DNA of 64,000 nt, from the sequence record PV287714.1; one strand, 5' to 3'. The stretch is from Escherichia phage HMD-9. This document shows, piece after piece, positions 19,412 through 55,797 of the stretch. The position numbers were made by a program, and so were the translations under genes. The notes beneath the pieces were generated by a model that worked only from the letters and a program-made list of their open reading frames with translations, was not told where the DNA came from and made no database searches. Every line of letters begins with the position of its first letter. The first letter of the stretch is position 1.

Positions 19412-19436
19412 AAAAAAGGGGACCTCTAGGGCCCCC
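19412..19436 (-). terminator. rho-independent terminator
   Basis: GGGGGCCC-taga-GGTCCCC stem followed by U6 on minus strand. Confidence 0.6.
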
Positions 19437-19447
19437 TTTGTGTTGAT

Positions 19448-19979: not shown

Positions 19980-20009
19980 ATTATAATATGCTTTGCGGCA
20001 GAAGTAAAC
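19980..20009 (-). promoter_or_regulatory. T4-type early promoter (GTTTAC-N18-TATAAT)
   Basis: Reverse complement GTTTACttctgccgcaaagcataTATAAT. Confidence 0.6.
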
Positions 20010-20030
20010 AACTTTGTGACGTCATTTTAA

Positions 20031-20056
20031 ACAAAAAAGGGAGCCCGAAGGCTCCC
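20031..20056 (-). terminator. rho-independent terminator
   Basis: GGGAGCC-ttcg-GGCUCCC stem plus U6 on minus strand, directly after the stop at 20059. Confidence 0.65.
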
Positions 20057-20058
20057 TA

Positions 20059-21072
20059 TCATTTATAATAACTTCGGTGGTTTTCAAGATAAACCCTCTC
20101 AAGGAAGTCATCCCAGAAACCCATGTCTACTTTTTGCTGCATACCGTTCTTAGAAGCTTCAATGGATGCTGCTTCTACTTGATCGACCACATCTTCCAAA
20201 AACTCTTGAACAGTTTTAAATGGATGTTTACCCAGCTTCACGTCGAGAATAAACGGAGCATCTTGGAGTGGATAAACCAAGTCGCCAGTTTTGTAAATTT
20301 CCAATAGTTGGAGTCCACCACGACAAGCATGACTCAGAGCTTTCCAATCAATGCCTTCGTTAGCTTCAGCTTTACGAGCGCGTTCACCATATTCAGCATC
20401 GAGTTTATTCAAAGACTGCTTAAGCTCAATAAGAGAAAGTGTAGTCTGATATTTACGACCCAACACAGTATAGAACGTTTGCGGGCCTGTTTTCTCATGA
20501 TTATGGAATACCCATTCACAGAATTCGTTTTCTGGAAGACGGTGTTTAATATCTGCAATTTTAGTACGACGTTGTCCTTGTGTTCCATCTTCTCGGTAAT
20601 CAACCCACTGATCGGGGATTTGATTAACTACTTTCAATACATCACGCAATGCGGCCAAACGAGAACCCTTAACACCATATTTAGAAGCTTGCTTGCGGAC
20701 ATATCCTAAATAAGATTTCATGTTAGTTGTATAAAAACGAGAACGATTGTCTTGAATAAACTTCCATACATCAGGCAAATCAGATTTAACTACCAGTTCA
20801 GGTGGAGTGTGGAGCATATCCAATGCTACGGTTTCACCATCTGCTGCTAATTTAAAGAAATACTTAAGACTGTATAGTTCATGGTCAATATCATCTTTAG
20901 TGTTTTTAGATGATGTGTTGTTAGTGTTTTTGCTCATATGCTCTTTAACATTTCCAATAAGAATATCACGAGCAGGAGGAACAAAGATTTCTTTAAAATC
21001 TACATCAGATTCTGGAGTAGAAGTTCCATAAAGATGACTACCAAAATAGCTTTTCATTACTGTTTTCATCAT
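20059..21072 (-). CDS. Pol-beta-superfamily nucleotidyltransferase (NTP_transf_2-like) of unknown substrate
   Basis: 337 aa; N-terminal FGSHLYGTSTPESDVDF fits the hG[GS]x9-13[DE]h[DE]h nucleotidyltransferase signature. Confidence 0.65.
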   Translation of the reverse strand: MMKTVMKSYFGSHLYGTSTPESDVDFKEIFVPPARDILIGNVKEHMSKNTNNTSSKNTKDDIDHELYSLKYFFKLAADGETVALDMLHTPPELVVKSDLPDVWKFIQDNRSRFYTTNMKSYLGYVRKQASKYGVKGSRLAALRDVLKVVNQIPDQWVDYREDGTQGQRRTKIADIKHRLPENEFCEWVFHNHEKTGPQTFYTVLGRKYQTTLSLIELKQSLNKLDAEYGERARKAEANEGIDWKALSHACRGGLQLLEIYKTGDLVYPLQDAPFILDVKLGKHPFKTVQEFLEDVVDQVEAASIEASKNGMQQKVDMGFWDDFLERVYLENHRSYYK

Positions 21073-21452
21073 TCAGCCTTATATTCAATAACAGGACATA
21101 CTTTAGCTTTACGCGCTTTTAAAAATTCGACGATAATAGATTTCTTTGGTTGAATAGGAGGTAAACCTTTATACGCCCTATCAATATTTTCTACATGTAA
21201 AGCATAATCCTTTTTCCATTTATAATCTTTATATTTTTCATGCAGTTGTGCAGGAATAACAAATGAACCGATAATAAGTAAAACAAGCAAAATAGCAAGT
21301 ATAAATGCTGATGGAATAAGAGTCCATAAACTACCAAAAATAAGCCATTTCTGTATGATTTCTGCACAGATGATAGTTAGACCTGCGAGTATAGTACATC
21401 CGAAAAAAGAAACAAAAATGTAGGAATAACAATAGACCAAAAATACGCGCAC
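21069..21452 (-). CDS. membrane protein; probable true N-terminus lies in another frame (ATG 21529), implying a frameshift near A6 tract 21403-21408
   Basis: ORF track 127 aa; the 21529-start ORF (50 aa) continues into this frame; see finding. Confidence 0.45.
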   Translation of the reverse strand: MRVFLVYCYSYIFVSFFGCTILAGLTIICAEIIQKWLIFGSLWTLIPSAFILAILLVLLIIGSFVIPAQLHEKYKDYKWKKDYALHVENIDRAYKGLPPIQPKKSIIVEFLKARKAKVCPVIEYKAE

Positions 21453-21531
21453 AGTGTCTTAGGTCGTTTCCATTCGTCGTTAAACATTTTGAATAATTTA
21501 TAATGCCAAGAGCTTTCATTAATAATCATAA

Positions 21532-22053
21532 TTATCCTTTCATTGAAGGTGTAACAGTTGTTAAATACTTAATCATAGCTTCAGCTTCTGATTTTGATAA
21601 TGAAATTTCTCCATTGTTTTGACGAATAGAAATAAAATCCGGATGACGGTCACCACCAGCTTTTAAAATACACATATAAGTATCAGTTTCATCTTCAATA
21701 TCTGAAATGATTGAAGCAGTTCCGCATGAATGTGGTTTTTGATAAATCAATGCAGCTTTTCTTCCACCGTTTGACTGTTCATAAACTTTTAACACATCAA
21801 ACAAATCACTTCTTTTATCAATAGCTAAGATGTTGTTTTCATCTTCAATGTTAAATCCTTCGGATACTTCATAAAGTGTCACCCATAAATCGCCAATATC
21901 AATGACAGCATTCACCTTTCCATGATTTTCAAGAGCATTACAAATTTTCTTAATTTCATCATAACTCATTTTAATAATATCATCTCCTTGAATAAGGAAG
22001 ATGTCATTTTTAAATTCAACACGAATTAAACCGCTTTCACTTGAAATAAACAT
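21532..22053 (-). CDS. hypothetical protein, paralog of 22060..22617
   Basis: 173 aa; shared C-terminal motif SKSEAEAMIKYLTTVTPSM / TKDEAIALKTYLDSVIPTM. Confidence 0.55.
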   Translation of the reverse strand: MFISSESGLIRVEFKNDIFLIQGDDIIKMSYDEIKKICNALENHGKVNAVIDIGDLWVTLYEVSEGFNIEDENNILAIDKRSDLFDVLKVYEQSNGGRKAALIYQKPHSCGTASIISDIEDETDTYMCILKAGGDRHPDFISIRQNNGEISLSKSEAEAMIKYLTTVTPSMKG

Positions 22054-22059
22054 ATTTCC

Positions 22060-22617
22060 TCACTTTGAAATCATAGTTGGAATGACAGAATCAAGATAAG
22101 TCTTTAGCGCAATAGCTTCGTCTTTGGTAAATGTGACAATATGTGATCGAAAATCGTCAATTTGGCGAATAATTAAGACATCTCCCTCTTCATAACATTT
22201 TGATACATTTAAAAGAGTTTCATCATTCTGATCGCAAGCATTAGTAATAATAGCATTGCAATTTTTGAGCCATTTTAAACTATGTTTTCTTTCATTAGAA
22301 TAATAAAAATATTTAATCTTAGCTATAAAACTATCCCAATGAATAACTGATAAGCACATTGACTCACTTTTAATATTAAATCCTGGGCATGAAGAATAAA
22401 AATGAATTTTGTGCTCATCATTGATGCTTACTATTTTATCAGTATAAGGATATTCAATTTGGGTTAAATGAATGATTTCACTAGGCGTAAAATACAGCAT
22501 ATCGTCTTCTTGCGTCAAACGATACATATTATTTACTTTTTCTATAGCCAATTCACCAAAAAGCGGACTAACTTCTAATACTAATCGTTTCATATTGATT
22601 CTCTTCGACTCACTCAC
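22060..22617 (-). CDS. hypothetical protein, paralog of 21532..22053
   Basis: ORF track 185 aa. Confidence 0.55.
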   Translation of the reverse strand: MSESKRINMKRLVLEVSPLFGELAIEKVNNMYRLTQEDDMLYFTPSEIIHLTQIEYPYTDKIVSINDEHKIHFYSSCPGFNIKSESMCLSVIHWDSFIAKIKYFYYSNERKHSLKWLKNCNAIITNACDQNDETLLNVSKCYEEGDVLIIRQIDDFRSHIVTFTKDEAIALKTYLDSVIPTMISK

Positions 22618-22751: not shown

Positions 22752-22781
22752 TACTATATCATAACCTTGCCAACTTGTAAA
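22752..22781 (-). promoter_or_regulatory. T4-type early promoter (GTTTAC-N18-TATAGT)
   Basis: Reverse complement GTTTACaagttggcaaggttatgaTATAGT. Confidence 0.5.
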
Positions 22782-53992: not shown

Positions 53993-55797
53993 TGAAACAA
54001 AATATTAATATCGGTAATGTTGTTGATGATGGTACCGGTGACTACCTGCGTAAAGGTGGTATAAAAATAAATGAAAACTTTGATGAACTTTATTATGAAC
54101 TTGGTGATGGAGATGTTCCATATTCAGCCGGTGCCTGGAAAACTTATGATGCTTCATCTGGACAAACACTAACGGCAGAATGGGGAAAATCATACGCTAT
54201 TAATACCTCTTCTGGAAGAGTAACTCTACAACTTCCTAAAGGAACTGTTAATGATTACAACAAGGTAATTAGAGCCAGGGATGTATTTGCAACGTGGAAC
54301 ATCAATCCAGTTACACTAGTAGCTGCTTCCGGAGATACAATTAAAGGGTCGTCATCGTCAGTTGAAATTAATATTCAATTTAGTGATTTAGAGCTCGTTT
54401 ATTGCGCTCCAGGACGTTGGGAATATGTCAAAAATAAACAAATTGACAAAATTATTAGTTCAGATATTAGTAATGTAGCTCGCAAAGAATTTTTAGTCGA
54501 AGTTCAAGGGCAAACAGACTTTTTAGATGTTTTCAATGGAACTAGTTATAATGTCAATAACATCAGAGTAAAACATCGTGGTAACGAATTGTATTACGGT
54601 GATGTATTTAGCGAAAATAGTGACTTTGGCTCTCCTGGAGAAAATGAAGGTGAATTAGTTCCTCTTGATGGATTTAACATTCGATTAAGACAGCCTTGTA
54701 ATATTGGTGACACCGTTCAAATTGAAACATTTATGGATGGTGTATCACAATGGAGAAGTTCATATACAAGACGCCAAATAAAAGTACTGGATTCAAAACT
54801 AACGTCAAAGACTTCTTTAGAAGGAAGTATTTACGTTACTGATTTATCGACGATGAAATCAATTCCATTCTCTGCATTTGGATTAATTCCTGGTGAACCC
54901 ATTAATCCTAATTCTCTTGAGGTTCGTTTTAATGGAATTTTACAGCAGCAGGCTGGAACCGCTGGACATCCTCTGTTTTTGTGTGAAGGCGCTAGTTCAG
55001 ATACGCGAGAAGGTTGTATATCTCTTGGTGGTGAATGGAAAGAATCAAACACAGATTATTCTATAGAATATGAAGATGGAAAACCTACCAGTCTTTTATT
55101 TGATAGAAAATTTGAATCAGGTGATATAATCGTTATAACGTGGTTCAATAATGATTTAGGAACTCTTTTAGAAAAAGATGACATTATTGAATTAACGGAT
55201 GACCGTTATGTTAGCAAAGGATCATCCACCGAAGTTACTGGTGATGTAGCCTTAACAGATTTTGATAAAATCGGTTGGCCAAATGTTGAAAAAGTTGATT
55301 CTTATACTAGAATGTATAATTCAATATCATCTATTTTCGACAGCATTTATCCTGTTGGTTCAATTTATGAAAATGCTATAAATCCAAATAATCCGGTGAC
55401 TTATATGGGATTTGGTTCATGGAAATTATTTGGTAAAGGACAAGTTTTAGTAGGATGGAATGATGATGTTACGGATCCAAACTTTGCTTTAAACAATAAT
55501 GATTTAGATTCTAGCGGAAATCCTTCACATACTGCCGGTGGAACAGTTGGAACAACATCAGTAACGCTTGAAAACGCAAATCTTCCTGCGACTAAAACCG
55601 ATGAAAGAGTTTTAATTGAAGATGAAAACGGATCAGTTATTATTGGAGGTTGCCAATATGACCCAGATGAAACTGGTCCTATATATACAAAATACCGTGA
55701 AGATTACGCAACAACAAACTCTTCACATACTCCTCCTGCTAATATTAGTAATATTCAACCGTCTATTACTGTATACCGTTGGATAAGGATTGCATAA
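53992..55797 (+). CDS. 10: baseplate wedge protein gp10
   Basis: 601 aa; T4 synteny. Confidence 0.92.

Follow-up and report, generated by a model that had tools for sequence, protein, structure and literature searches.

The window, that is, the whole 64,000-nucleotide stretch of Escherichia phage HMD-9 DNA that was analysed, carries on its minus strand a genuine gene orthologous to T4 nrdC.11. The positions of this gene, its signals, its neighbours and the segments of its product are collected in Table 1. The open reading frame encodes 337 aa when read from its first ATG (21072) and 336 aa from its second (21069); the T4 annotation of nrdC.11 uses the second ATG (336 aa).

Table 1. Features of the nrdC.11 region in the HMD-9 window. 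Residue numbers refer to the 337-aa reading of NrdC.11.
Feature	Position	Strand	Basis or remark
nrdC.11 orthologue CDS, long-form RlaP-family nucleotidyltransferase	20059..21072	(-)	ORF, Pfam, PHROG, T4 alignment
hG[GS]...DxD motif, G11-S12 to D23-V-D25	20998..21042	(-)	ORF, 116-sequence alignment
D63, candidate third catalytic carboxylate	20884..20886	(-)	predicted strand 62-68, at least 90% conserved; assignment inferred
K244-x3-H248-x2-R251, invariant, in C-terminal helical domain	20320-20343	(-)	alignment
Minimal Pol-beta NTase core, residues 1-100	20773..21072	(-)	model; strands 3-10, 24-31, 45-49, 62-68; helices 69-87
Beta-rich insert, residues 155-209	20446..20610	(-)	model; outside Pfam RlaP model match
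C-terminal helical domain, residues 214-337, HEPN/KNTase_C-like	20062..20433	(-)	model; includes P268
AAGG Shine-Dalgarno	21077..21080	(-)	4 nt before first ATG, 7 nt before second; inside upstream ORF 3' end
Intrinsic terminator	20030..20057	(-)	8-bp GC-rich stem, UUCG loop, U-run; directly after stop codon
Best upstream sigma-70-like promoter, TTTACA-17-TATAGT with TG	22753..22781	(-)	consensus match only; candidate start of nrdC.11 unit
Membrane-protein gene upstream of nrdC.11	21069..21529	(-)	frameshifted in T-run; stop overlaps nrdC.11 start
y05I/MobD.1-type paralogue	21532-22053	(-)	PF24449 + PF24448; nrdC.11 unit
y05I/MobD.1-type paralogue	22060-22617	(-)	PF24449 + PF24448; nrdC.11 unit
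ModB-like ADP-ribosyltransferase ORF, 161 aa	19448-19933	(-)	PHROG 832, E=6.5e-24; no Pfam match
NrdC.10, 326 aa	18351-19331	(-)	Walker A GAAGIGKT

The window is that of a T4-like Tequatrovirus, and over the 2.1-kb nrdC.11 region its identity to the 15 phage records that matched best was 93.8-97.3%. The T4_ev240 protein is 100% identical to HMD-9 NrdC.11. T4 NrdC.11 (NP_049709 / UniProt P39242, Y05H_BPT4; RefSeq product name 'nucleotidyltransferase') has the same length and shares 324 of 337 residues (96%) with the HMD-9 protein, the differences being one additional N-terminal Met in HMD-9 and 12 substitutions, 7 of them within residues 154-173. The gene position is also shared, downstream of mobD.1-type genes and upstream of nrdC.10. 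Unlike T4, HMD-9 carries the ModB-like ORF between nrdC.10 and nrdC.11, which is absent from reference T4, and the T4 mobD homing endonuclease is missing from the HMD-9 window. Judged from these comparisons, the HMD-9 gene is T4 NrdC.11 in a close relative of T4.

Both candidate ATGs of nrdC.11 overlap the TGA stop codon (21071-21069) of the upstream ORF, in the arrangement A-TGA-TG, and the second is better spaced from the Shine-Dalgarno sequence than the first. No terminator-like site was found on the minus strand from 23596 to 20057. This start/stop overlap, the internal Shine-Dalgarno sequence, the lack of an intervening terminator-like site and the upstream promoter-like site together indicate that a multi-gene unit ends with nrdC.11; it is made up of a small ORF, two y05I-like genes, the membrane-protein gene and nrdC.11 itself. 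Thus nrdC.11 is not the 'stand-alone' gene described in an earlier note on this DNA. The terminator which that note had placed directly downstream was recovered: its stem, AGGGAGCC-UUCG-GGCUCCCU, occupies 20057..20038 and is followed by UUUUUUGUUU, with a folding dG of -18.3 kcal/mol (z=-4.1).

Several features of the neighbouring genes were also recorded. The membrane-protein gene is frameshifted in a T-run (~21,440) relative to T4_ev240 and UFV-AREG1, and reads as a 50-aa ORF (21377..21529) and a 127-aa GTG-started ORF (21069..21452); its N-terminal frame differs in all three phages. The two genes upstream of it are tandem paralogues of the T4 y05I/MobD.1 type, annotated as 'putative transcription factor'. 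On the other side of nrdC.11, the ModB-like ORF forms a small transcription unit of its own, with a promoter-like site at 20008..19980 and a terminator at 19439..19415. The AAA and novel-STAND NTPase matches of NrdC.10 were all sub-threshold, and NrdC.10 is no recurrent neighbour of RlaP in bacteria.

A single Pfam family matched NrdC.11 significantly, PF10127 (E=3.6e-11; 43.7 bits for a gathering cut-off of 23). This is RlaP, the RNA-ligase-associated Pol-beta family, with the Pfam title 'RNA repair pathway DNA polymerase beta family'. The match spans residues 7-135 of NrdC.11 and positions 23-142 of the 249 in the profile, that is, the N-terminal half only. PHROG 388 ('nucleotidyltransferase') matched end to end, with E=8e-136. 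Clustered at 50% identity, the relatives fell into 3432 groups when E<=1e-3 was allowed and into 822 when E<=1e-30 was required; among the 150 matches listed, nearly all were 300-350 aa long and aligned end to end. The RlaP Pfam match was present in 115 of the 116 homologues aligned. NCBIfam and PADLOC gave zero matches to NrdC.11, and nothing was found in sequence and profile searches of the PDB. These results, with the modelled fold described below, confirm the Pol-beta-type nucleotidyltransferase call of the earlier note, and place NrdC.11 among the long forms of RlaP (PF10127), a branch of the DNA-polymerase-beta nucleotidyltransferase superfamily.

The earlier note had also listed other nucleotidyltransferase profiles to be compared. 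One of them, NTP_transf_2, was recovered at a sub-threshold level on residues 10-27, as the sole other nucleotidyltransferase signal in Pfam at E<=10; no CCA-adding, CD-NTase or antibiotic nucleotidyltransferase profile matched. CCA-adding enzymes and poly(A) polymerases (PF01743 and relatives) gave no Pfam match at E<=10 and none among the 116 homologues. No SMODS/CD-NTase match to CD-NTase or cGAS-like synthases was found in Pfam or PADLOC. Likewise, there was no sequence-family match to the antibiotic nucleotidyltransferases (KNTase, ANT, LinB) in Pfam or among the 116 homologues.

Residues 10-26 of NrdC.11, FGSHLYGTSTPESDVDF, contain the catalytic motif. In the model, F10-G11-S12 sits at a strand-helix turn, where strand 3-10 ends and helix 12-15 begins, and D23-V-D25-F starts 11 residues past S12, at the start of predicted strand 24-31. 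This is the Gly-Ser and the acidic pair about 11 residues on that had been noticed before (G11-S12, D23-x-D25). Conservation of the motif was established in the 116-member alignment, where G11, S12, Y132, K244, H248, R251 and P268 are invariant, and D23, D25, N57, D61, D63, D85, K131, K279 and G281 are conserved in at least 90% of members. The candidate third carboxylate, D63, was paired by visual comparison with the D that is invariant in canonical RlaP, the hhalign alignment being shifted by one residue, and D61 and D85 are conserved carboxylates besides it. The segments that bear the motifs (residues 11-30, 121-140 and 231-250) were almost invariant across close Tequatrovirus orthologues.

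The structure of NrdC.11 was predicted with AlphaFold2. From the single sequence the model reached a pLDDT of 40 and was set aside for the model based on the 116-sequence alignment (pLDDT 95.2, pTM 0.85). The predicted fold is a minimal Pol-beta nucleotidyltransferase followed by a HEPN/KNTase_C-like helical domain. Helices accompany the nucleotidyltransferase sheet up to about residue 113, and a long helix is modelled at 119-150. The roughly 300 residues to which the earlier note could give no function are thus accounted for, in the model, by the rest of the nucleotidyltransferase fold, the helical domain and the beta insert. Foldseek gave no match below E=1e-3 against the PDB, and the PDB copies searched contained no solved RlaP-family structure, including the PfRlaP crystal structure. 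Variation among close Tequatrovirus orthologues was greatest in the beta-insert region (residues ~141-209; 20446-20650), at about residues 141-190.

Canonical RlaPs (P. fluorescens/P. aeruginosa RlaP, B. subtilis YcgL-like) belong to the same Pfam family as NrdC.11. They share with it the GS...DxD...D core, its last D being the candidate D63 in NrdC.11, the succession of an N-terminal nucleotidyltransferase and a C-terminal helical domain, and, for the relatives of NrdC.11, the association with RtcB and Pnkp operons. However, canonical RlaPs are 252-286 aa long, and NrdC.11, with its 337 aa and its beta-rich insert, is ~50-85 residues longer. Short RlaPs match the entire PF10127 model (E 1e-62 to 1e-79), whereas their long neighbours match only positions ~20-157. 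Alignment of the long and short profiles by hhalign covered only the nucleotidyltransferase core (residues 6-94, probability 75%). For the C-terminal parts, the hhalign alignment was not significant (E=0.34) and placed K244/H248/R251 opposite K166/Y170/R173; P268 with P189, and K279 with K216 of canonical RlaP, were paired by eye. K-x3-[H/Y]-A-x-R and the Pro are invariant and colinear in NrdC.11 (H248) and in canonical RlaP (Y170). On these alignments we interpret NrdC.11 as built on the scaffold of canonical RlaP, into which up to ~90 residues have been inserted, with a putative homology of the two C-terminal domains. The short form is present in phiKZ-like and Caulobacter jumbo phages; it was found in no T4-like phage record of the phage collection, nor in the HMD-9 window.

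The gene neighbourhood of the subfamily was analysed outside phages by scanning one genome per species, which gave full-length relatives of NrdC.11, at 32-54% identity, in 80 loci of bacteria and archaea. Neighbouring ORFs were clustered, HMMs were built from the clusters, and the assignments were confirmed with Pfam. RNA-repair genes lay within 8 kb at 20 of the 80 loci, and none was found nearby at the other 60. They were RtcB (11 loci), Pnkp, recognised as kinase plus phosphoesterase plus PNKP_ligase or RNA_lig_T4_1 (9 loci), Hen1 (8 loci), Ro60/TROVE (6 loci) and RtcA (2 loci). The immediate upstream gene was often Pnkp, RtcB, RtcA or Ro60, in several cases on the same strand. In a Nitrosospira locus (L038), the order was Ro60 - RtcB - RtcA - long RlaP - short RlaP - Hen1 - ... 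- Pnkp. The bacterial RNA-repair neighbourhood is thereby established for the subfamily of NrdC.11 itself, to which the association with ligases, after which RlaP was named, can be extended.

As in the Nitrosospira locus, a second, shorter RlaP was detected by HMM search at 26 of the 80 bacterial/archaeal loci, nearly always directly downstream of the long form and on the same strand. These pairs (for example at loci L010, L021, L036, L038, L053, L055, L060, L066, L069-L071, L075, L076, L081 and L083) often sit inside Pnkp/Hen1 or RtcB/RtcA/Ro60 cassettes.

A search of the 64-kb window for RNA-repair genes (Rnl1, Pnkp, RtcB, Hen1, Ro60, RtcA) or a second, canonical RlaP found none, the only signal being a weak P-loop match at 54729-55190. 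In T4, pseT and rnlA lie ~80 kb from nrdC.11, and neither T4 nor the HMD-9 window has an adjacent ligase or kinase. The relatives of nrdC.11 in the distant Klebsiella phage Miami and Vibrio phage phi-Grn1 have no conserved neighbour. Counts of phage-collection records carrying NrdC.11, Rnl1 and Pnkp were near-identical within each Straboviridae host genus: 608, 636 and 635, respectively, for Escherichia, 286, 287 and 286 for Klebsiella, 83 of each for Shigella, 75, 77 and 77 for Aeromonas, and 69, 69 and 70 for Acinetobacter. These matching counts are consistent with a joint function, but they are confounded by common descent.

RNA repair was first exemplified by the Pnkp-Rnl1 pathway of T4, which RloC-type nucleases have been proposed to overcome through excision of the wobble nucleotide. 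RlaP has been predicted to refill the nucleotides lost to such nucleases before ligation, according to Iyer et al. 2021 (PMC7824862), where the prediction is cited from Burroughs & Aravind 2016; in jumbo phages, RlaP and RNA ligases have matching distributions (Iyer et al. 2021, PMC7824862). Biochemical data come from the preprint by Carruthers, Fatma and Huang (bioRxiv 10.64898/2025.12.29.696909) on two canonical Pseudomonas enzymes, PfRlaP and PaRlaP. Both extend an RNA 3'-OH by one or two NMPs (or dNMPs), work best with Mn2+ and are inactive on DNA and protein. They favour mimics of broken tRNA, namely the 5' half of a nicked tRNA mimic, and aminoacylation of a tRNA lacking one anticodon-loop nucleotide was partly regained with canonical RlaP. 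In the same study T4 NrdC.11 is listed as an RlaP of unknown function in network cluster 5, and the biochemistry comes from sub-cluster 1a. Hence the remark in the earlier note that no substrate was evident can be revised, since canonical RlaP acts on RNA 3'-OH ends (10.64898/2025.12.29.696909) and the long-form bacterial relatives occur in RNA-repair operons.

On balance, and with modest confidence, we consider NrdC.11 to be a template-independent RNA 3'-terminal nucleotidyltransferase which fills in damaged tRNA before sealing by Pnkp and Rnl1, and thereby acts against nucleotide-excising anticodon nucleases. We infer that the long form shares the chemistry of canonical RlaP, and that such tRNA is its target in vivo. 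G11-S12 and the carboxylates D23, D25 and D63 would hold two divalent metals, probably Mn2+, and the NTP. RNA or NTP would be bound in a cleft formed by the C-terminal helical domain, with K244/H248/R251, and by the beta insert. NrdC.11 would then move one or two NMPs, without a template, onto the 3'-OH of a broken RNA. Made early in infection, it would partner the phage polynucleotide kinase-phosphatase (PseT) and RNA ligase 1: nucleotides excised from tRNA by host RloC-type anticodon nucleases would be put back, so that ligation could give a functional tRNA. Expression of the T4 orthologue bears out the earlier description of an early gene, its RNA being classed as early and its protein, which was detected, as middle (PMC9697503 supplement). 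The T4 nrdC.11-mobD.3 block can be deleted and the gene is dispensable in the laboratory (PMC9825161), as would be expected of a counter-defence gene. Several results weigh against the repair reading: the Pfam match confined to half of the profile, the core-only alignment with canonical RlaP, the absence of an adjacent ligase or kinase gene in T4 and in the HMD-9 window, the 60 bacterial/archaeal loci that showed no RNA-repair gene, and the frequent company of a canonical RlaP.

NrdC.11 is already annotated as a nucleotidyltransferase, belongs to the Pfam family RlaP and has been singled out in the literature. Should it refill the wobble nucleotide, NrdC.11 would supply the third enzyme that has been missing from the phage RNA-repair pathway, and would add another layer to the tRNA-cleavage arms race. 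This proposal has been published before (Burroughs & Aravind 2016, quoted in PMC7824862; the RlaP preprint of 2025), and with the gene already annotated the finding adds no new category. The long/short split, the tandem arrangement in bacteria, the variable insert and the restriction of T4-like phages to the long form may go beyond what has been published; no mention of the long and short pairing was found in the papers available.

The accompaniment of canonical RlaP by the long form at 26 of the 80 loci suggests that the activity of the latter is non-redundant and possibly different. The long form could be a functionally distinct partner of the short one, of which T4-like phages would have captured only the long half for use against RloC-type nucleases, a possibility that we put forward tentatively. 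Given the pairing in cassettes and the variable insert, the long RlaP may differ in the RNA end or nucleotide that it chooses, or form a heteromer with the short form.

The chemistry assumed for repair by NrdC.11 would be identical if the enzyme were offensive, extending the 3' ends of host RNA or tRNA so as to block aminoacylation or mark them for decay during early host shut-off. Such a role would fit the early expression of the T4 orthologue (PMC9697503 supplement), and the active tRNA pool would shrink if RlaP worked on tRNA that is intact or has been cut in the ordinary way (10.64898/2025.12.29.696909). However, the bacterial relatives adjoin repair enzymes and not toxin-antitoxin partners, and the MenT/AbiEii toxins belong to a different nucleotidyltransferase family, unmatched by NrdC.11 in Pfam at E<=10. 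We regard offensive tailing as unlikely.

Repair or maturation of the tRNA 3' end, in which the phage enzyme would rebuild nuclease-trimmed CCA tails of host or phage tRNAs, appears improbable. T4-like phages do have tRNA genes, and by family analogy a Pol-beta nucleotidyltransferase could act on an RNA 3'-OH. However, T4 tRNAs without an encoded CCA have it added by the cca enzyme of the host, and this speaks against a CCA enzyme of the phage's own. Besides the missing CCA-adding and poly(A) polymerase matches, the model has no head-neck-body-tail arrangement. Canonical RlaP also labels full-length RNAs of tRNA size, but shows little NTP specificity (10.64898/2025.12.29.696909).

Equally doubtful is nucleotidylyl transfer to a protein or small molecule, after the manner of KNTase/ANT/LinB or the MNT antitoxins, for instance to AMPylate a host factor or a HEPN toxin. 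The architecture, a nucleotidyltransferase with a HEPN-like helical domain, is indeed that of KNTase, ANT and MNT-HEPN. However, kanamycin nucleotidyltransferase / ANT(4') and LinB have antibiotic substrates, lie in unrelated genomic contexts and have no sequence-family match to NrdC.11, whose bacterial relatives lie in RNA-repair contexts; moreover, canonical RlaP left E. coli proteins unlabelled (10.64898/2025.12.29.696909).

Finally, it is very improbable that NrdC.11 is a primer-independent synthase of the HalB or CD-NTase type, making an oligonucleotide that serves as a signal or as a decoy, such as one that prevents a Hailong-type defence from switching on. The oligodeoxyadenylate synthase Hailong HalB (9dbh), a defence-system component with a HalA partner, has 217 aa, is 16% identical to NrdC.11 and is without the insert and the C-terminal domain, and the top fold matches contain no CD-NTase or cGAS-like structures.

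Among the 80 loci, four (L006, L007, L056 and L073) consist of many short same-strand ORFs and have the appearance of phage or prophage DNA, and not of chromosomal repair operons. The closest non-T4 relatives of NrdC.11, found in such phage-like loci, come from a Bacilli MAG and Flagellimonas marina and are 52-54% identical to it.
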